DNA of 63,669 nucleotides, the filler included, from Welwitschia mirabilis (lineage: Eukaryota): the NCBI GenBank assembly GCA_051453625.1. It is 5 parts of one record of this genome, joined end to end, with 100 filler letters (N's around TTAATTAATTAA, not from the genome) between each part and the next. Parts side by side here need not be neighbours in the genome. Positions count along the whole stretch, not along the records: positions 36,161 to 59,949 come from JBOZIK010000001.1; 4 more parts are not named here. One strand, 5' to 3'. Both the position numbers and the translations under genes were made by a program. The notes under the pieces are model-generated. The model worked only from the letters and a program-made list of their open reading frames with translations. It made no database searches and was not told the DNA's origin. Numbering within the stretch: position 1 is the stretch's first letter; each line of letters begins with the position of its first letter. Shown one piece after another: positions 42,141 through 56,500 of the stretch.

Positions 42141-44464
42141 TTTGCTTTATAAGTAGATGTTAATTCAAGATTAATACAAAGACTACTTCACTTCTATTAT
42201 GTGCATATCCATTATGATTTAAGCTACTTATAATTTTGTGATAGCTTCATAATTGATCTAGATCATAAGGAGAACCTTTAAAGTTGACACTATTAGTTTA
42301 GATCTTGCATTCATTTCATATTACATTTTCATAATTGCATATTCTATTTGATGTATCTTATAAGTTATATTGGTTAGGGTTAAGTGATATTTTTTTAATT
42401 GATCTAAATTATAAGGATTAATTTTAATGACAAGAAGATTGATAGTTAAATAAATTGATTATTCATTGCATTTGCATTTCATCATCATTCCTCTTGCATT
42501 ACATTTGCATTATTTCTTATTTTCATTTACTAAAAGAAAGAAGACTAAAAATACTTTGTTGAAATAAATTCTCTAACTTCTAACCTTAGTGTCTTTAATA
42601 GATTATAACATTTAAATTGACTCCTATCTATACTGGTGTGTATTTTTTTTGGCAAAAATTTGTGATCTCCAGGTTTTATCTACTTAAGGATTGCATAAAT
42701 TTTCACGGTAACATTTTGACATCATTACTAGGAAAGGCCACAAGGAGTCAAAGGATTATCACTATTTAGATAAGTACCTTGCATTTTAATTTAAGTTATT
42801 TATCTATATAGTTCTATATTTTTACTGTAGATTCCATACATTTACTTTTCACAATTTTTATTTTGATAGTTTTCATAAATCCTTGTCATCCTATCTTTTG
42901 TCTAGATGAGAGTATGGACGATAGTTATTTTTTCATGCTTTTCTATTCTTTCACAAAATATTTTTTATTTTTTGATAGTGTAATAAAGTTAACATCATCT
43001 TGTTTGTTGTCCAGATGATCTATAGATTTGGTTTTTTTTCCTGATTTTCTGTAGTCATCCTTTTTTTTTTTGGTGCAAAATAACTAAGTCATCCTTCATA
43101 TCATCCAGGTGACTCAGAATATAATGAAATTATGCATCTTTTAAGTGTTAAAAATCTAAAGAATTCTAATAAAAAGATGAAACATTAAAAGAAACAGAGC
43201 TGATCTCCACCTTGTACTTATCTTCCTTACCATCTGATTAGATTCTCTTATTTTATTCTTCCTAATTATGTAATAAATAGTAATAAAAGTATCCTTGGGG
43301 AAATTCTTTCTAAAAGGTGGAGAAACTTAAGAAATTTTGAGGAAAATGTAAAAGAATACTTTGAAAACTTCTTACATAAAGAAGGAGGATAACACAAAAT
43401 AATGTTAAAACTAGGAATTAGGCCCCCTCATTTTTCCAACCTTCTTATTTATCCCATTCTTCTTTTCAAACTTCATATAAAAATAATAACAAAAATTTTC
43501 AACATTTTAGGGATTCAACCTCATTTAAAGAAACATTTTAAAATCATTTTAGTCAATCCCCTCCATCTCCCATGAATTACTATGACGAAGATCCACCTTT
43601 TATGATCTACTATAAGAAAGAAAATGGTTTAATAAAAGAAATTATTGATAAAAGGAAGAAGAGGCAAAAAGATACCAATAAGAACCTAGAAAACTTAATT
43701 GAAATCCTTTAACAAATAATGTTACAAAATCAAGGTTCTTTTGTAGTGCAGCATCCACAAACCTATCCTACTACATCCTACATAAAGGAAAATGAGGAGA
43801 ATTTAGGAACAACTGATAATGATTCTTGCTTTTAAATAGAAGATAAGCTTTTAAATCAAAATTCAAAATCCTTAATAGATGGCCAAATGGAAGACAATAA
43901 TGACTCAACTCAATTTTTCAACAATGAGGATGATTATTCATTAAATGATGACATTGACGTATTAGATTAAATCCTTGCCATTTATTTACTGCTAGAAAAT
44001 CTTGATGAGGACTCCATCCATAAAGAATCCAAAAACTTTTTGATCTATGATTAAGATAATGTTTACATTTCTCTTGATGGCCTTTTTAATAAATCCAACA
44101 ACTTAGAAAATGAGAGCAATACTCGACAAGAGAAGGAAGATATAGTTAAAAATAATAATGAGAAAAGTGAAGAAATAATTCAACAAAATAATGATGAAGA
44201 CAATAATGAAGGAAAGAGATTTGGTTCAAATTAAATAAGCTTTGCTAGGGTTTTAAAGCTCTGCTAGGTTTTAATGAATCTGAAGCGTAAGAGGGTGTAA
44301 GGCTTCGAGGGCCACAGATCAGTGGGGGTGGTTTCAATCCCTGGTCATGTAATGCAGGGGCAATTTCAGTTGTCAGACAATCATTCTATAGGTAAGTTGT
44401 GGGCTTTTTTTATTTAGCAGTTCTAGTCCATTTTTAGGATTTTTTTTAGGGGTTTAGCCCCAAT

Positions 44465-45826
44465 ATGAAGAATACTCAGTTCTCAAGGAAAGAGAAATTC
44501 CTTGTATTGGACATCGACGAAGATGTCTATAGTGAGATTAAGAAGAAACTCAGATACAGTCTAATCAGAAAGTTTGTATCTTCCAGTTCTCGACCAAGGT
44601 TAGATTGGATTTATGAATGGGTTGCTACTAAATGGATAGGAGTTAGCAAAGTTGATGTTATTGCAATGTTGGAAGGGTTCATGTTATTTCAACTAGAAAA
44701 CAAACAAGATCAGGATGAAATAATCATAAGAGGATCTTAGGTTTTTAGGTTTCATGGCCTTGCCCTAGCCAAATGGATGCCGATGACATAACCAGACCTG
44801 AATCTATTTAAGAAACTTCCAATCTAGATCCGCATCCACAAGTTCTCATTGGAATTTTGGGATGAAGATCTATTAAGAAGAATGGCAGCNNNNNNNNNNN
44901 NNNNNNNNNNNNNNNNNNNNNNNNNNNNNNNNNNNNNNNNNNNNNNNNNNNNNNNNNNNNNNNNNNNNNNNNNNNNNNNNNNNNNNNNNGGACAGGAGTT
45001 AGCAAAGTTGATGTTATTGCAATGTTGGAAGGGTTCATGTTATTTCAACTAGAAAATAAACAAGATCGGGATGAAATAATCATAAGAGGACCTTGGGTTT
45101 TTAGGGTTCATGGCCTTGCCCTAGCCAAATGGATGCTGAGGGCATAATCAGACCTGAATCTGTTTAAGAAACTTCCAATCTAGATCCGCATCCACAAGTT
45201 CTTATTGGAATTTTGGGATGAAGATCTATTAAGAAGAATGGCAGCTTAGTTTGATGAACTCATCAAATTTGACAAGATCACTATTAAACAAATAAGATTA
45301 GTATTAGCTAGATTTTGTGTTTGGATGAGCCTAGAGGATACCAAGAAGCTTCGATCTATAAAGTTTAGATCTAAATAGGGTATTTGTGATATTAACATCA
45401 CCTATGAGAATCTTTCGATCCCTTGCATAATCTATGAAAAATTAAGACATTTCTCAAGAAGATGTGCTCCTCCTGAAAAGAAATGTTTACATTGTGAAAA
45501 ATTGAGTCATCTAAGAGAAGAATGTCGAAAAAGATTGATTGATATTGAAGAAAAGGCAAAGGAAACCTATACTTTTCATAGGAAAACTGGTCACAATCAG
45601 AACATATGCCACCATAAGTAAAGGAAGGGATAAATTAAAAAGAGTACTACTATTTTTCCCAAGGACAGTAAGAAAAAGAAAGCACCAAAACTAGAGCATA
45701 ACCCCTTTCAACCTCTTGTGAAAGAAAATAATACCCAACAACCTCTAAATGATGATGAACCTAACGAAGTGGAAATCCAAACAAAGGAAAGGCCTAGCAA
45801 TAGAACTCTCCAAGAATGATAAATAA
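44465..45826 (+). pseudogene. LINE ORF1 (DUF4283-like domain plus CCHC zinc knuckles)
   Basis: LIRKF..RPRLDWIYEW..W...GFMLF...D.DEII..GPWVF..GLALAKW; LPI*IRIHKFLLEFWDE; CLHCEKLSHLREEC at 45484. Confidence 0.85.
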
Positions 45827-46720
45827 NNNNNNNNNNNNNNNNNNNNNNNNNNNNNNNNNNNNNNNNNNNNNNNNNNNNNNNNNNNNNNNNNNNNNNNNNN
45901 NNNNNNNNNNNNNNNNNNNNNNNNNNNNNNNNNNNNNNNNNNNNNNNNNNNNNNNNNNNNNNNNNNNNNNNNNNNNNNNNNNNNNNNNNNNNNNNNNNNN
46001 NNNNNNNNNNNNNNNNNNNNNNNNNNNNNNNNNNNNNNNNNNNNNNNNNNNNNNNNNNNNNNNNNNNNNNNNNNNNNNNNNNNNNNNNNNNNNNNNNNNN
46101 NNNNNNNNNNNNNNNNNNNNNNNNNNNNNNNNNNNNNNNNNNNNNNNNNNNNNNNNNNNNNNNNNNNNNNNNNNNNNNNNNNNNNNNNNNNNNNNNNNNN
46201 NNNNNNNNNNNNNNNNNNNNNNNNNNNNNNNNNNNNNNNNNNNNNNNNNNNNNNNNNNNNNNNNNNNNNNNNNNNNNNNNNNNNNNNNNNNNNNNNNNNN
46301 NNNNNNNNNNNNNNNNNNNNNNNNNNNNNNNNNNNNNNNNNNNNNNNNNNNNNNNNNNNNNNNNNNNNNNNNNNNNNNNNNNNNNNNNNNNNNNNNNNNN
46401 NNNNNNNNNNNNNNNNNNNNNNNNNNNNNNNNNNNNNNNNNNNNNNNNNNNNNNNNNNNNNNNNNNNNNNNNNNNNNNNNNNNNNNNNNNNNNNNNNNNN
46501 NNNNNNNNNNNNNNNNNNNNNNNNNNNNNNNNNNNNNNNNNNNNNNNNNNNNNNNNNNNNNNNNNNNNNNNNNNNNNNNNNNNNNNNNNNNNNNNNNNNN
46601 NNNNNNNNNNNNNNNNNNNNNNNNNNNNNNNNNNNNNNNNNNNNNNNNNNNNNNNNNNNNNNNNNNNNNNNNNNNNNNNNNNNNNNNNNNNNNNNNNNNN
46701 NNNNNNNNNNNNNNNNNNNN

Positions 46721-49700
46721 TAAATCCAAATGGCTCATCCTAGATGACTTCAATTAATGTATTAATTGCTAATAAAAATCAAAGAGTGTTAACTAGAATT
46801 CTAGAGATGCCTCAATACTAAAAGAATTTTTGACAAGATACTCCCTCATAGATGTTCCTATTGCTAGGTTCAAGCATACGTGATCAAATAGAAGAGTAGG
46901 TATAGATCTGATAATGTCCAAGATTGACAGAATTCTAGCTAGGAAGGATCTAGCTAAACTTTCATTTAAAAACTATGGTCTGAATAGGATTGCTTTGGAC
47001 CATCATCCTATCAAACTCAGAATGGGAATGATTTCGCCCCAGAAAACTTCATTTCGTATGGAACAATATTGGATTAACCGGAGAAAAACTAGAATGCTGT
47101 TAGAAAAAATATGGGCACAGTATAATGGGACTTAATCATAACTTTTTTGTATAAGGGCCTTAATACCCTAAAGGCTTACACAAGAGATTGTAGAAGGAAA
47201 GATAAAGAGAGGTTTGAATAAAAAACTGAGCTTGAAGAGGAAATCAAAAGAATCCAAACTGAGTAGGAGGAGGAAGATAATTAGGATAGTCTACAGAATA
47301 GAAAATATTAATGTCTAATGGATCTCTAAAAAATAAATGCTAATGAAGAACATTACTGGAGAGAATGCTCAAGGATCAAATGGCTAAAAGAGGGTGATAA
47401 ACATACTAGATTCTTCTTCCAGCAGGTCAACCAGCATAGATCAAATAACAGGATTAGAAGACTATCCATAGGAGATCAAATCACAGAAAATGAAGAGGTA
47501 TAGCTAAGGAATTATAGGCCCATCTTAAGAGAATCTGGGAATGGAATGATATTGTGCCTGACTTAATTCTAGAAAATAAGAAAATCTTTAGTGAAGATAA
47601 CTATATGTTAACTAAACCTCTAAGTAGAGAAGAGATCTTATTTATTATCAGATCCATGATGAATAAATGATCCCTTAGCCCTGATGGTTAGACAATCAAA
47701 CTTTTCAAATCCCACTTCTCCATCTTAGGGGGTAACCTTCACGATGTGATGTAGAAAGTCCTCTATAATAGATGGATTCCTAGGGAAATGAATAGAATTA
47801 AAATGGTACTTATACCAAAAAAAAAGAAATGCTAGCAAACTAGAGGATTTCAAGCCTCTAAGTGTTTATGATATTATTTACAAAATTTTTATGAAAATTA
47901 TGGTTGACTGAATTGCCCTTTGCTTTACAATGTGATTTCAGAGAGCTACGTCGGCTTTATCTGATTCAGGTATATCCAAGACCAAATCCTCTTGACCTAT
48001 GAGATGATTCACTCTGTTTAAAAATACAAATTTCCTCTTCTTATTACTAAATTAAATATCGCTAAAGCTTACAATTCGATTAGTTGGTAATCATTAGGGT
48101 GTATTCTTAGAAAAATAGGCTTTTCTCAATATATTATTAATCTCTGGCTAGACATGCAGGCTTCTGCCAAATTTAGTGCGGAGGTCAACAACCATAGATC
48201 AAATTTGTTTTCAGTAGGAAGAGGGCTGAGACAAGGGGATCCCATATCCCCATACCTTTTTGTTTTTGTGATGAATGCATTACAGGTTTTCTTAAGAAGG
48301 AACAGAGTTACAGGAGTTAGAATTGAAGGCCAAACCTTTCTCAACAATCACTATGCAGACGACGCCATCATTATGACTAGGGCATCATGTCAGCAAGCAA
48401 AAGCAATCAAAAATGCCATGAACACCTTTGTAGAGGCAACAGGGTTAAACATTAACTTGAACAAATCAAGAATACACACTTTGGGCAGAAAATGTATCAA
48501 AGGAGGCGAAATCACTCGAATCCTGAGTACAAAGTTAGGATATCTACAGGATATCTACCTGAGTATCCCTCTTCGAAATTTCTACAAGATAAATAACTGA
48601 AATTACATCTTGGAATCCATCCAAAGGCGGTGCAACTCATGGCAAAATAACTTTCTCTCCTCCAAAGTTAAAATCATTCTCACAAACTCTTGCTTAATTT
48701 CCTCCTTTCGATACATAGCTTCCGTTATCGCGCAAGAAATATCATACAAAAAATCAACAAGATCTTAAAGAATTTTATGTGGTCAGGAGGAAAGGATCAC
48801 CATGAAATTCATCTCTGCAAATAGGAGACTATTGCCTGCCCAAAGGAATCAGGAGGTTGGGGGATTCATAAACCCGAAGATTGCATCCTCCCTAGATCAT
48901 ATAGAATTTTAAAGAGATTTCAAAAAGGGGGTCAGCCCTGGTGTAATTTGATTAATTACAAATATAAGGATTGAACAATTGATCATAGGGAGTTCTATCT
49001 AAAGAAACATCTTAGTAAAGTTTGACAACAACTCATTGACTTAAATATTTATTGGTCTGATTTAACTAAGTAGATCCTTTTAAAGAAGTATGAAAAACAA
49101 GATGCATACAAGAAGTATTGGAAGGGACAGATTCCAGAAAAAATTAAGGTTTTTTGCCGGTTAAAAGATCACCAGAGAATTTTAACTAAAGACCAATTAC
49201 TCAAAAGGGGATTTCAAGTAGACTTTAACTGTCCCATCTGCCAGTCNNNNNNNNNNNNNNNNNNNNNNNNNNNNNNNNNNNNNNNNNNNNNNNNNNNNNN
49301 NNNNNNNNNNNNNNNNNNNNNNNNNNNNNNNNNNNNNNNNNNNNNNTAAATGATCCCTTAGCACTGATGGTTAGACAATCAAACTTTTCAAATCCCACTT
49401 CTCCATCTTAGGGGATAACCTTCACAATGTGATGTAGAAAGTCTTCTATAATAGATGGATTCCTAGGGAAATGAATAGAATTAAGATGGTACTTATACCA
49501 AAAAAAAAAGAAATGCTAGCAAACTAGAGGATTTCAAGCCTCTAAGTGTTTGTGATGTTATTTACGAAATTTTTATAAAAATCATGGTTAACTGAATTGC
49601 CCCTTGCTTTCCAATGTAATTTCAGAGAGATACGTCGGTTTTATCTGATTCAGGTATATCCAAGACCAAATCCTCTTGACCCATGAGATGATTCACTCTA

Positions 49701-52260
49701 TTTAAAAATACAAATTTCCTCTTCTTATTACTAAATTAAATATCACTAAAGCTTACAATTCGATTAGTTGGTAAGCATTAGGGTGTATTCTTAGAAAAAT
49801 AGGCTTTTCTCAAGATATTATTAATCTCTGGTTAGACATGTAGGCTTAAGCCGAATTTAGTGTGGAGATCAATAACCATAAATCAAATTTCTTCTCAGTA
49901 GGTAGAGGATTGAGACAAGGGGACCTCCTATCCCCATACCTTTTTCTTTTTGTGATGAATGTGTTAAAGGTTTTCCTAAGAAGGAACGGAGTTATAGGAA
50001 TTAGAATTGGAGGCCAAACCTTTCTCAATAATTACTATGTCGATGACACCATCATTATAACCAAGGCATCATATCAGCAAGTAAAAGTAATAAAAGATGC
50101 TATGAACGTATTTGCAGCAGCAATAGGGTTGCACACAAACTGGAACAAATCAAGAATCCACACTTTGAGTAGAAAATGTCTCAGAGGAAGTTAAATCACC
50201 CAAATCCTGAGTACAAAGTTAAGAGACCTATAGGATATCTACTTGGGTATTTCTCTTTGAAATTGGCATAAGACCAATACCTGGAATTACATCTTGGAAT
50301 CCATCCAAAGGCGGTGCAACTTATGAAAAAATAACTTTTTTTCNNNNNNNNNNNNNNNNNNNNNNNNNNNNNNNNNNNNNNNNNNNNNNNNNNNNNNNNN
50401 NNNNNNNNNNNNNNNNNNNNNNNNNNNNNNNNNNNNNNNNNNNACCTAGAACAAATCAAGAATCCACACTTTAAGTAGAAAATGTCTCAGAGGAAGTTAA
50501 ATCACCTAAATCCTGAGTACAAAGTTAAGAGACCTACAGGATATCTACTTGGGTATTTCTCTTCGAAATTGGCATAAGACCAATACCTGGAATTACGTCT
50601 TGGAATCCATCCAAAGGCGGTGCAACTTATGAAAAAATAACTTTTTTTCATTCAAAGCTAAAATCATTCTTACAAACTCTTGCTTCCTCCTTCCGGTACA
50701 TAGCTTTCTTATTGCCCTCTGAGAAATATCATCCAAAAAATTAATAGAATCTTAAAGGATTTTATTTAGTCAGGAGGAAAGGATTACCACAGAATTCATC
50801 TCTGCAAATGGAAGACTATTGCTCACCTAATAGAATCAGGGNNNNNNNNNNNNNNNNNNNNNNNNNNNNNNNNNNNNNNNNNNNNNNNNNNNNNNNNNNN
50901 NNNNNNNNNNNNNNNNNNNNNNNNNNNNNNNNNNNNNNNNNCTTCTAGTACATAGCTTTCTTGTTGCCCTCTGAGAAATATCATTCAAAAATTAATAGAC
51001 TCTTAAAGGATTTTATTTAGTCAGGAGGGAAGGATTACTACAGAATTTATCTCTGCAAATGGGAGACTATTGCTCGTCCAATAGAATCAGGGGATTGGAG
51101 GATTCAAAAACTAAAAAATTACTTCCTCACTAAAGCACATAGAATATTAAAGAGAACGCAAAAAGGAGGTTAGNNNNNNNNNNNNNNNNNNNNNNNNNNN
51201 NNNNNNNNNNNNNNNNNNNNNNNNAGGGAGTCCTGCCTTAGGAAACACCTCAACAAATCTCAACAACAATTCATTGACTTAAACATTTGTTAATCTGATT
51301 CAATTAAGCAGATCCTACTAAAGAAGTATGAAAAAGAGGATACATACAAAAAGTATTGAAAGGGACAGATTTCAGAAAATATTAAGGTCTTTTGTTGGTT
51401 AAAAGCCCATCAGAGAATTTTAACTAGAGATCAGTTACTCAAAAGAGAATTTCAAGTGGATTCAAACTGTCCCATCTACCAGTCTAATCCAAAAATAGTA
51501 CAACATCTATTTCATCACTACTTTTGGAGCAAAGAATTAATCTTCATTATGACGAAGTACTATCAAAATTACAACGCCCTTTACATGCATTTATTGGATG
51601 GGAACCACCTCATATTTTGGCATATTTATAGATCAGAAATAATCTGTTTTTTAATAATGTCCGCTTCCTTTTCTTATAAATATAGCCAGGAGGATTATNN
51701 NNNNNNNNNNNNNNNNNNNNNNNNNNNNNNNNNNNNNNNNNNNNNNNNNNNNNNNNNNNNNNNNNNNNNNNNNNNNNNNNNNNNNNNNNNNNNNNNNNAG
51801 GGAGTCCTACCTTAGGAAACACCTCAACAAAGCTCAACAATAATTCATTGACTTAAACATCTGTCAATATGATTTAATCAAGCAAATCCTACTAAAGAAG
51901 TATGAAAAAGAGGATACATACAGAAAGTAGTAGAAGGGACAGATTTCAGAAAATATTAAGGTCTTTTGTTGGTTAAAAGACTATCAGAGAATTTTAACTA
52001 GAGATCAATTACTCAAAAGAGAATTCCAAGTGGACTTAAACTGTCCCATCTACCAGTCCAATCCAAAAATAGTACTACATCTATTTCATCACTACTTTTA
52101 GAGCAAAGAATTAATCTTCATCATGATGAAGTACTATCAAACTTACAACGCCCCTGACATGCATTTATTGAATGGGAACTGCTTAATATTTTGATAGATT
52201 TATAGATCAGAAACAATCTGATTTTCAATAATGTCCCCTTCCTTTTCTTATAAACATATT
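46721..52260 (+). pseudogene. LINE ORF2 (AP endonuclease, reverse transcriptase, zf-RVT)
   Basis: WLILDDFN, SKIDRIL, ALDHHPI (APE); GLRQGDPISPYLF and HYADD (RT, 48154-48600; second copy 49862-50194); WKGQIPEKIKVF..L...RILTKDQL..C (zf-RVT). Confidence 0.93.
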
Positions 52261-52290
52261 NNNNNNNNNNNNNNNNNNNNNNNNNNNNNN

Positions 52291-53518
52291 CAAATGAAAG
52301 TTGTGATGGGAGCCATGCCAATAATTAAGTCTTCTGACTCAAGCCTCTTTGAAGGATGCCATGCTCTATGGGAGAAAGTGCAAGCGATGGGATGGGGACC
52401 TCTTCTGCATAAGCTTGAAGGAGACCAAGGGGCTGATATCATTCGCTTTTATAGATGATGGAGAGGAGGATGCATTACATTCTAAAGAATTCCAATAGAA
52501 ATCACTGAAGACTCCTTCTTCAANNNNNNNNNNNNNNNNNNNNNNNNNNNNNNNNNNNNNNNNNNNNNNNNNNNNNNNNNNNNNNNNNNNNNNNNNNNNN
52601 NNNNNNNNNNNNNNNNNNNNNNNNNNNNNNNNNNNNNNNNNNNNNNNNNNNNNNNNNNNNNNNNNNNNNNNNNNNNNNNNNNNNNNNNNNNNNNNNNNNN
52701 NNNNNNNNNNNNNNNNNNNNNNNNNNNNNNNNNNNNNGCTTTTGTCAAAGTTCTTGACTTAGGGCATCAAGTAAATCTGCTATGCTTTTTCATTCAAGTT
52801 CTTAAATGCAAGGATTTCTCAAAGCACTTAGGCTTAGTCTTGGTCCTTTAGAGAGCATCACAAGAAATCAGGGTGAGAGAAGATCATCCTCCTTCTCTCG
52901 TTATGGTTTTTACTAGACTTCCCCTAAGAGAACCTCCAAAAAAAGAACCTCTTTCAAAAGGAAACTGCTACGTCTGGAAGTCCTAGTAAGAAAGGGATGA
53001 CATTACTCCTAGGTCATTCAGGGAAGATGTCTTCGCTTCCTGCCCAAGAGAAGATAGTTAAGGAGCCTAACTTCAGCTCAGCCCAGGAACCTGCTTAGAA
53101 TCAATTGTTATCCAACTCTTAGGAGCAAAATAAGCATGCTTAAACTTCCCCTACTTCAGCCTTAGGCCCCAGCTCTCTATAAAACTCCACTTCAAATTCT
53201 TCTTTAGTTGAAATCTGACCTCAACCACAAGATGACATGGATATGAAGGCTGCTAAATGGGAAGTTTTATTGGCAACCATTCAAGGGTTGAATAGATGTC
53301 CCTTCATCACATTGGGACTCTCTCACAGAGCCCTCCCTCAGGCTATTAAATTGAGCTACATAAAGAAGGCCCTATGACTACATCTAGATAAAAATCTAGT
53401 AGGTGCTAAAGAATTTAAGGAGATAAATTAAGCATTTGAGGTTCTCTTTGATAATTTGAGTAGATTTCTTCTCAACCATAATTATGGTAACATGTTCCCT
53501 TTTTGTAGAGGGCTTTAA
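52291..53518 (+). pseudogene. Extra LINE coding region (ORF3 or ORF2 extension): retrotransposon accessory-type domain, S/P/Q linker, C-terminal J-domain
   Basis: Manual translation: ...LWEKVQAMGWGPLLHKLEG..DIIRFYR*W..IPIEITED [gap] VLDLGHQVNLLCFFIQVL...HLGLVLVL, then one frameshift in the A7 run (~52938-52944), a linker and the J-domain. Stops in the linker and J-domain are each one C>T from CAA/CAG/CGA. Confidence 0.7.
53297..53479 (+). pseudogene. DnaJ/Hsp40 J-domain (decayed)
   Basis: [59 protein letters not shown] aligns almost without gaps to the J-domain consensus. HLD (CAT CTA GAT, 53381-53389) is one C>T from HPD. Confidence 0.88.
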
Positions 53519-56500
53519 TCCTCCCCCCTTGGGTCTGTTCCCTACCAAACTAAGTTTTTTGGTAACTTTTGATCTTAAGGGGCATTTTCACCCCCAGTCT
53601 ATCAGCAATACTATGTTNNNNNNNNNNNNNNNNNNNNNNNNNNNNNNNNNNNNNNNNNNNNNNNNNNNNNNNNNNNNNNNNNNNNNNNNNNNNNNNNNNN
53701 NNNNNNNNNNNNNNNNNAACTTTTGATCTTAAGAGGCATTTTCACCCCCAGTCTATCAGCAATACTATGTTTTTCTTTTTCTATGTTTCTGCTCTTCTAG
53801 ATAGGCAGTTCCGCCTAACTATGTCATTGAGGGGCGGTTCTGCCTCCATTTTGTTCTGTTTCTTAGTTCCCCCTTTACCTAGTGGACTACTTCTCTTTTT
53901 TCGAATAGTCTAATCATCATGTTATTCCTAGGCATTTTCATCCCCAGTGTACATTTTCTAGATTAATATATATACTTTTTTTAAAAAAATAATAAAGAAA
54001 AGAAACATAGTGAAGGATTGATAGAGATTAAGTTAAACTTAACAGAGGATAGACTTATTCATCCTACTCATGTCTTTCCATCCCTTCTAATTGCACTTTC
54101 ATGTATAACTCTAAATCACATCCTTCCTTCCACATTTACTTCGACATTATCTTGTAATCTTGATAATGATATCATCTCTTCACCTCTTTCATTTAAACAT
54201 TCATGTGATTATCAAAGCCACATCCCTTTCCTTGACTTTCATGAGACTAATAACTTTGAAAATTCTTATTTCTACTACNNNNNNNNNNNNNNNNNNNNNN
54301 NNNNNNNNNNNNNNNNNNNNNNNNNNNNNNNNNNNNNNNNNNNNNNNNNNNNNNNNNNNNNNNNNNNNNNNNNNNNNNNNNNNNNNNNNNNNNNNNNNNN
54401 NNNNNNNNNNNNNNNNNNNNNNNNNNNNNNNNNNNNNNNNNNNNNNNNNNNNNNNNNNNNNNNNNNNNNNNNNNNNNNNNNNNNNNNNNNNNNNNNNNNN
54501 NNNNNNNNNNNNNNNNNNNNNNNNNNNNNNNNNNNNNNNNNNNNNNNNNNNNNNNNNNNNNNNNNNNNNNNNNNNNNNNNNNNNNNNNNNNNNNNNNNNN
54601 NNNNNNNNNNNNNNNNNNNNNNNNNNNNNNNNNNNNNNNNNNNNNNNNNNNNNNNNNNNNNNNNNNNNNNNNNNNNNNNNNNNNNNNNNNNNNNNNNNNN
54701 NNNNNNNNNNNNNNNNNNNNNNNNNNNNNNNNNNNNNNNNNNNNNNNNNNNNNNNNNNNNNNNNNNNNNNNNNNNNNNNNNNNNNNNNNNNNNNNNNNNN
54801 NNNNNNNNNNNNNNNNNNNNNNNNNNNNNNNNNNNNNNNNNNNNNNNNNNNNNNNNNNNNNNNNNNNNNNNNNNNNNNNNNNNNNNNNNNNNNNNNNNNN
54901 AATTGGGGTAAATCTTATGTTCTTGATAATAATCTATGCTTAGAATTGAATCTTAAGAAGCTTCTTAACCTTATTAAACATTCTAAAAAGCCTTCAAAAA
55001 CTTCTTGGGTCCATTCTTTGGGTAGTTCCTTGAATGAATTATATAATGATACTCATGATTTATGACATTTCAATAAGAGATTATTTATAATGAAATATAT
55101 CACTTCTCGATCTCTTATTTGGATTCTGTAATTTGTGCTATCAAGTTTTTATCTTTTTACTCTCTTTTCCTCTAATTAGTTTTACTCTAAAACGATTGTA
55201 TATCTTTTATGTTTTATCAATTCGTTTCTATTTGGTTTGGCCATTATTTTTCTGAAAAGTATAATACTTGAGTGCATCTTTTACATAATTCATTAACCTC
55301 TAAATGATTAGGTTCTTATCTTTTCAATAAAGTGCATTCTAATGGGTTAGTTGAAANNNNNNNNNNNNNNNNNNNNNNGTTTTGTTTCTAAAACCTTCAA
55401 TATAAAACTATAAATACCCCTCTTTTCCTCACTCCCAATTCATCTTTTTGTACTACAAAGTCTTATAATAAAAGATTAAAGGATAAGAGGTTTATCCTAT
55501 GGTACAAAGAGAAGTCTTCCTTGGTGTTGAGCTATGTATCCTCCATTGAAGTGCTGCTACTTTGTAAGTGGATGTTAATTTAAGATTAATACAAAGACTA
55601 CTTCACTTTTATTATGTGCTTCTCCTTTATGATTTAAGTTTTTATGATTCTGTAATAGCTTTATAATTGATCTAGATCATAAGAACAAACTTTGTTAAGG
55701 TTGACACTCTAGTTTAGATCTTACATTTATTTCATATTACATTTCCATAATTACATATTTTGTATTATGTATTTTATAGCTTATATTGGTTAGGGTTAAG
55801 TGACAGTTTTCTTAATTAATCTAAGATATACAGACTGATCTTAGTGACAGGAAGATTGATAGTTAAATAGACTCATTATTCTTTGCATTTGCATTTCATC
55901 ATCATTCATCTTGTATTACATTTGCATTATTTCTTATTTTCATTTACTAAAAGGAAAAAGAATAAAAATACTTTGTTGAAATCAATTCTCTAACTTCTAA
56001 CCTTAGTGCCTTCAATAGATTATGACATTTAGGTTGACTCCTGTCTACACTAATGTGGGTTTTTTGTTTTTTCAAGCATTCGTGATCTATAGGTCTTGCT
56101 TAAGGACTTAAGGATTGCATAGCTTCACACCGCAATAATATTAATAACATAAAGTAACCCTTTGCTTTGGCATATTATCATTATTTACTATTCCTTTTTT
56201 TATTGTTAGCATTCTTTATTGAGGATAAACTATTAATTGGTCAAATAACAAGTGGGTAATTCATTTTTGTAAATAAGACTGAAAATGAAAAAGTCTCTAT
56301 TGGTGTTAATTGCTACTCTAAAGCATTATCTATTTTTATAATGTATTTTATCTTTTAAGGCCTTCTTACTAGCATAAGATTCATTAAGTGTATGTTTACT
56401 ATTTTTTAATTTATTGACTCCTAAAACACAAGGGTACTTAGTTTAAAATTGTTCAAAAATATTACACACCATGAAATATCTTATTAGTTGTAATAGCTTT

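Follow-up and report, generated by a model that had tools for sequence, protein, structure and literature searches.

A decayed J-domain open reading frame, most likely of a high-copy poly(A)-terminated retroposon family, downstream of a LINE remnant in Welwitschia mirabilis

A dead J-domain sequence lies at 53237–53518 (+ strand) of a window of Welwitschia mirabilis DNA, the whole stretch analysed here (63 669 nucleotides including filler; assembly GCA_051453625.1, with positions 36 161–59 949 from JBOZIK010000001.1). The J-domain open reading frame (J ORF) is most likely one member of a poly(A)-terminated retroposon family that reaches high copy number both in this plant and in another organism. 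The preliminary description of this DNA was headed as a LINE retrotransposon carrying a J-domain; this headline is not established, and the physical link of the J ORF to LINE ORF2, its origin by capture and any use of it by the element are inferred. Our tentative preference, held at a little under even chance, is for the J ORF as cargo: it would lie in the unusually long 3′ region (about 1.5 kb) of a plant L1-type LINE family and would have been captured and then spread by target-primed reverse transcription (TPRT).

The + strand translation given previously for 53297–53518 was reproduced exactly. For the Pfam search proposed in the preliminary description, the query was read from the preceding stop codon (53219–53518, + strand), each stop codon being written as X. 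It matched the DnaJ profile PF00226 with E = 3.1e-8 and 34.1 bits, above the gathering cutoff of 27.8 bits, and the J-domain assignment was thus borne out. Residues 31–82 fell on profile positions 5–59 of 63, corresponding to nucleotides 53309–53464. The profile was still recovered with 27.9 bits (E = 2.6e-6) inside the 2519-residue frame translation of 46721–54277, and all three frames of the minus strand of this interval gave no Pfam family. The relic was aligned with six J proteins taken from the 13 HMMER matches described below; all ten invariant columns of this seven-sequence alignment are retained (L32, G33, A38, K44, Y47, H55, D57, N59, L76 and D78). The His-Pro-Asp (HPD) tripeptide at the junction of helices II and III reads H-L-D in the window copy.

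The J ORF, in which the J-domain is the only recognized module, begins with an ATG at 53237 and comprises 93 codons and a terminal TAA (53516–53518). It is interrupted by a TGA at 53375–53377 and a TAA at 53429–53431; these two stops and the HLD reading agree with the earlier statement that this copy is dead, and the sequence is a genuine but dead J-domain. Two stops in 93 codons compare with 11 in the 160 codons immediately upstream in the same frame. At the window-wide stop frequency of 0.074 per codon the probability of two or fewer in 93 codons is 0.027, and the J ORF was therefore probably intact at the time of insertion. An in-frame fusion of the J-domain to ORF2 was also considered and is excluded by the 11 stops in the preceding 160 codons: the J ORF stands apart from ORF2 as a small reading frame that opens with an ATG of its own beyond stop-rich DNA. 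The J-domain is intronless and lies on the same strand as the DUF4283 (ORF1), RVT_1 and zf-RVT matches, as had been described.

The whole window has a GC content of 31.6% and a CpG observed/expected ratio of 0.25, with TpG and CpA near 1.1. Such values are the mark of DNA whose cytosines have been heavily methylated and deaminated, and they fit the C-to-T decay invoked earlier for the J ORF. Transitions dominate the differences between the window and the contigs aligned to it.

The closest database matches of the relic are generic cellular J proteins with 35–49% identity. Word-index protein searches returned 53 and two candidates, none at E ≤ 1e-3. An exhaustive HMMER search of 1.84 billion representatives gave 13 matches at E ≤ 1e-3, all of them generic J proteins, the best with 44 bits and 48% identity. 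Ten of the 13 were scanned with Pfam; PF00226 was the only family above the cutoff in every one of them, and a reverse transcriptase was found in none of these ten. An intact ORF of the J family was absent from the 1.84 billion protein representatives, and metagenome scans with the protein and with a 25-nucleotide J-core pattern gave no matches.

Repetition of the J core was assessed on public runs. Contigs of three DNA runs, namely X1 and X5 from two samples of organism A and X6 from organism B, and raw RNA reads of X17 were placed on 51225–54278 at ≥80% likeness, which gave 9279 (X1), 3793 (X5) and 10 019 (X6) contigs and 52 X17 reads. The segment 52738–53617 is partly present in 13 DNA runs from four studies. 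The summed depth of the J core (53367–53468), a quantity that is not equal to copy number, was 11 731 in X1, 2543 in X5 and 5585 in X6; the core is the deepest of 30 bins in X1 and X5 and the second deepest in X6. Across 53237–53518 the depth in X1 was 3705–11 731. The contigs of the locus itself had depths of 4.6 (X1, 52912–53186, one mismatch) and 2 (X5, 53029–53236, zero mismatches). The J sequence is thus a highly repeated family in two organisms, at 80–95% identity. The J sequence and the LINE do not recur elsewhere in the window, and neither a tandem nor an inverted structure surrounds the J core.

An intronless, decayed domain whose best matches are generic cellular J proteins (35–49% identity) would also be expected of a single pseudogene or exon of a host J-protein gene, or of a one-off 3′ transduction at this locus. 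These origins are very improbable: more than 100 distinct contigs per run cover position 53429, at 80–95% identity and in two organisms, and a lone pseudogene is thereby ruled out. The preliminary description had named a one-off 3′ transduction or processed pseudogene as one outcome that would overturn it, and the J core was found instead to be highly repeated in both organisms. The single-locus host pseudogene was rejected on the same counts of distinct J-core contigs.

The other copies also bear on the five single-base reversions proposed earlier for the relic. Reversion of the TAA at 53429 to a Gln codon (CAA) is supported, with C in the majority at this position (113 contigs in X1, 99 in X5 and 111 in X6), and reversion of TTT to TCT is supported by one expressed copy that has Ser in place of the Phe of 'EVLF' in the window. 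At the TGA (53375–53377), for which CGA (Arg) had been proposed, clipped diverged copies have a His codon.

Upstream of the J ORF, the remnant of a LINE was delimited on the + strand. ORF1 (44450–45621) was recognized from its ORF listing and from PF14111 (DUF4283), with E = 7.7e-15 and 6e-10 in two frames, together with Cys/His knuckles; it is partly duplicated across a 100-N gap (44890–44989). The ORF2 remnant (46884–52298), a chain of redundant contigs, has RVT_1 at about 47926–48480 and about 49604–50164 (E = 7.7e-19 and 1.1e-17) and zf-RVT at about 51312–51518 and about 51889–52092 (E = 4.9e-19 and 1.4e-5). The element therefore has the make-up of a plant L1, with a DUF4283/CCHC-knuckle ORF1 and with RT followed by zf-RVT in ORF2; DUF4283 is described as the dominant ORF1 domain of plant L1 in the main text of PMC5203782. 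The PF03372 endonuclease was not found at E ≤ 0.01, its expected site lying mostly inside the 894-N gap 45827–46720, and Pfam gave no RNase H (PF13456) in the LINE region. A piece of the RT (48091–48597) had 29 protein matches, all of them plant L1-like at 28–40% identity. Since all 29 are at most 40% identical, the LINE lineage of this plant appears to be absent from the searched protein database. The domains annotated among these relatives are RVT_1, EEP endonuclease, zf-RVT, DUF4283 and RVT_3; PF00226 is annotated in none of the 29.

The ORF2 stop is probably the TGA at 52296–52298, a position assigned manually from the loose ends of other copies across the 30-N gap 52261–52290, and all DNA beyond this stop is therefore 3′ region. 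This gap is filled by joints and by overlapping loose ends from X5 and X17. The joints from 52201 to 52291 and from 52239 to 52332 (X1 and X6) tie the following segment (52291–52523, + strand) to the zf-RVT contig. That segment, in which no Pfam family was found, is common to many other copies (summed depth 1100–2300 in X1), is deep in all three DNA runs and is touched by RNA reads from other copies. It contains a 54-codon ORF (52295–52460), again with no Pfam family, the ATG of which overlaps the presumed ORF2 stop (ATGA, 52295–52298). The overlap may be a coincidence, or the ORF may be a small one coupled by reinitiation.

The scaffold itself is a patchwork. The window contains 41 runs of N (10.4% N), and contigs on the two sides of gaps resemble one another: 44634–44889 matches 44990–45245 at 95% across a gap, 47664–48654 matches 49347–50338 at 89%, 50140–50343 matches 50446–50649 at 97% and 51225–51684 matches 51799–52258 at 91%. 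A stretch of 54 nucleotides occurs twice at 98% (53564–53617 and 53718–53771) on either side of the 100-N gap 53618–53717 and is an assembly artefact. The scaffold strings together redundant contigs (haplotypes or paralogous repeat copies, 89–98% identical) rather than merging them. Because the contigs flanking the gaps repeat one another, the 'LINE' is a succession of contigs that derive from two or three copies or haplotypes, and the order of contigs among repeats in this scaffold is unsafe.

Between zf-RVT and the tail there are three runs of N, at 52261–52290, 52524–52737 and 53618–53717. The second, an assembly gap of 214 N with a depth of 0, is the only point at which the connection of the LINE to the J contig is unverified, and it is crossed by none of the listed contigs and joints (X1, X5, X6 and X17). 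The LINE's own tail could be concealed in it. Beyond this gap lies a spacer (52738–53133, + strand), stop-rich in the J frame and with no Pfam family, of which 52755–52856 is common to many copies (depth 1261 in X1) and 52857–53133 to few (107–286 in X1). A leader (53134–53236, + strand) precedes the J ORF; other copies are about 82% identical to it, and contig pieces cover it at 53134–53423 (X1) and 53134–53430 (X5). By eye, the leader contains a TATA-like ctataaaa. Pfam searches of 52100–53300 in three frames with E values up to 1 gave no families between ORF2 and the J ORF.

Downstream of the J ORF, the 3′ region (53519–53989, + strand) was followed through joints, a contig piece and loose ends. 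Elsewhere the end of the J ORF is joined to this region from 53549 to 53726 (X5 and X6), from 53545 to 53729 (X1) and from 53615 to 53771 (X1 and X6), and a 197-nucleotide contig spans 53770–53961 (X6). At 53989, 86 contigs in X1 and 70 in X6 continue into A/T-rich sequences that are unlike one another (agreement 0.45), a pattern that resembles the end of a poly(A) retroposon. Other copies are thus collinear from the J ORF end to an A-rich 3′ terminus, and with this terminus near 53989 the distance of about 470 bp given earlier between J-domain and tail is confirmed. No other A-rich terminus is visible outside the gaps between the end of ORF2 and 53989.

A 22-nucleotide motif (GGCATTTTCACCCCCAGTCTA-like) is found in the 3′ region at 53580–53601, 53734–53755 and 53930–53951. 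One pair of these repeats is the assembly duplicate, and the third copy directly precedes the terminus. In the joints, other copies are missing 68–135 nucleotides between 53810 and 53948, which suggests an internal duplication in the window copy or in its subfamily.

The preliminary description had placed the J-domain inside a target-site duplication (TSD). This claim proved weak, as the best candidate (44148–44167 versus 53985–54002) is A-rich and ranks only 24th of 451 equally sized segments scanned, some of which overlap the target itself. The sequence just past the A-rich terminus (54081–54278) is itself highly repeated (depth 3045–5986 in X1). The element thus sits within another repeat, and its flanks help little in the assessment of a TSD.

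The cargo reading is the most economical one because the J ORF shares the strand of the LINE, has the ORF2 stop on one side and the sole visible A-rich terminus on the other, and because other copies are collinear on each side of the unbridged gap. The lack of a tRNA-like or Rfam head, the probable intactness of the J ORF at insertion and the hint of selection described below also favour it. Sequence from a host J-protein gene would have been taken up by read-through (3′ transduction) or by template switching. It would then sit as a separate small ORF after ORF2 and be copied along with the element by TPRT; the J product, if expressed from active copies, would bind host Hsp70 through its HPD loop. 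Against this reading count the weak TSD, the unbridged 214-N gap and the finding that none of the 29 L1 relatives has PF00226 listed. The unsafe contig order of the scaffold, the low-depth valley at 52857–53162, the greater depth of the J core than of zf-RVT in X1 and X5, the missing RT in the ten J matches scanned and the want of a second copy in the window also tell against it.

A rather less probable explanation is an independent non-autonomous poly(A) retroposon, in which a retrocopy of a J gene was multiplied after mobilization in trans by the LINE machinery. Its own 5′ end would lie near 53134 or further upstream, and its position next to the LINE would reflect insertion at or after the LINE tail, or scaffolding. 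The unbridged gap, which could conceal that tail, is in keeping with this origin, the more so if assembly breaks often fall in low-complexity DNA, as we would expect. So too are the valley of low depth at 52857–53162 (107–286 in X1), which separates the J unit from the islands upstream, and the depth of the J core, about 5–10 times that of zf-RVT in X1 and X5 (not in X6). The ATG of the J ORF downstream of stop-rich DNA, the patchwork nature of the LINE scaffold and the missing PF00226 in all 29 L1 relatives point the same way. However, it would be extraordinary for a retrogene in a plant to reach hundreds to thousands of copies. Searches of 51800–54278 for tRNA and Rfam families were empty, hence there is no SINE-type head, and neither a pol III nor a tRNA-like head was found. 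The depth of the valley is still 20–60 times that of the locus's own contigs, so that it is covered by other copies; the orientation of the LINE is shared, and 52291–53134 has no visible A-rich tract outside the gaps.

Another type of repeat was considered improbable. The J core would here be part of a tandem array, or of a fragment of a gene that a DNA transposon or an LTR element carries, and in a genome of nested repeats the A-rich terminus would be nearby by coincidence. Depth islands and valleys do occur along the whole stretch, the highly repeated sequence past the tail included, and the J peak is narrow (about 200 nucleotides). However, in other copies the contigs of all three DNA runs link the J ORF end to 53726–53800, which leads to the terminus, Pfam gave no transposase, integrase or gag family on either strand of 46721–54278, and tandem and inverted structures are absent nearby.

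Several observations would fit a working third ORF, a doubtful reading which we hold below that of an independent retroposon. The LINE family, of a lineage common to this plant and a related organism, would encode a J-domain protein of about 93 residues, selected in master copies, which would recruit Hsp70 for folding or assembly of the RNP, against silencing or to evade control by the host. All points in favour of the cargo reading apply equally to it, and the J ORF was nearly open at insertion. The depth is most sharply peaked on helix II, the HPD loop and helix III (53367–53468), declining on both sides, although a few very deep unitigs may produce such a peak. The stop at 53429 is a Gln codon in about 100 or more contigs per run. 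In the 16 codons of 53333–53380, a consensus of loose ends of other copies differs from the window by seven synonymous and four non-synonymous codons (counted by hand); the binomial probability of this synonymous excess is 0.02–0.05, which for 16 codons of a clipped consensus gives a hint of purifying selection on the J ORF.

The RNA data weigh against a working third ORF. Only 52 of about 11 million X17 reads fitted; all of them derive from other decayed copies (80–95% likeness), none is ≥95% alike to the locus, and they are uninformative about the window copy. The only expressed copy that spans the HPD motif has no HPD in either of the frames tried by hand. The want of an intact family ORF among the 1.84 billion representatives also speaks against it, and the connection with the LINE, on which it depends, is itself inferred. 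X17 oligo-dT reads on 53163–53468 (J family) and on 52291–52523 are few and come from both strands.

LINEs are known to have acquired host modules such as RNase H, an esterase and a helicase. In the literature searched, no report of a chaperone cofactor among such modules was found, and a full-text search did not find a J-domain in a non-LTR element. The term 'dnaj' is absent from the main text of a survey of L1 elements in 503 genomes (PMC5203782), whose supplements contain per-species domain tables that could list rare domains, and from the main text of a review of plant transposable elements (PMC9033089). If the reading as a working third ORF is true, it would be, within the literature searched, the first case of a J-domain in a non-LTR retrotransposon. 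A retrotransposon-encoded J-domain would parallel the viruses that bring their own J-domains or Hsp70 homologues, and it would offer a direct handle on the dependence of LINE RNPs on host chaperones. On the more modest reading, a J ORF at hundreds or thousands of copies matters for the annotation of this genome and of its relatives, as the copies will pass for DnaJ genes and inflate the count of the Hsp40 family. The case also illustrates that claims at the level of whole elements are unsafe where a scaffold has been pieced together from repeat contigs.

Among cellular proteins, the class C (type III) Hsp40s include J-domain-only forms, and J-domains are also encoded by viruses, for example in the polyomavirus T antigens. 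As in these, the J-domain is the sole recognizable module of the ORF described here; the window copy differs in lacking the HPD motif and in being interrupted by stops, and no specific cellular or viral subfamily emerged as its source.

In 3′ transduction by L1 and in LINE-mediated retrocopying, downstream or cellular sequence is copied together with or by a LINE, and the products normally remain single or few. The poly(A) end on the same strand is shared with such products, whereas the J core is found here in more than 100 distinct contigs per run and in two organisms.

A closer structural parallel within plants may be seen in the L1 LINEs whose ORF2 has gained an additional RNase H domain (Smyshlyaev et al., 2013, as cited in PMC5203782). 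Both have a plant L1-type element (DUF4283 ORF1, RT and zf-RVT) with a host-like module downstream of the RT. In the account given there, the RNase H is an in-frame part of ORF2 with an evident role in reverse transcription, whereas the J module is of the chaperone-cofactor type; it forms an ORF of its own (about 93 codons), lies about 0.9 kb beyond the presumed ORF2 stop and has a putative link to the element. A LINE lineage bearing an unexpected foreign domain on its 3′ side is also exemplified by the insect R1 LINEs, in which a tobamovirus-like helicase domain is located at the C-terminus of ORF2 (PMC4686597). As described in that paper, the R1 domain is C-terminal, in frame, of viral origin and in an animal element; the module found here is, in contrast, a plant J ORF that stands alone and is of cellular type.
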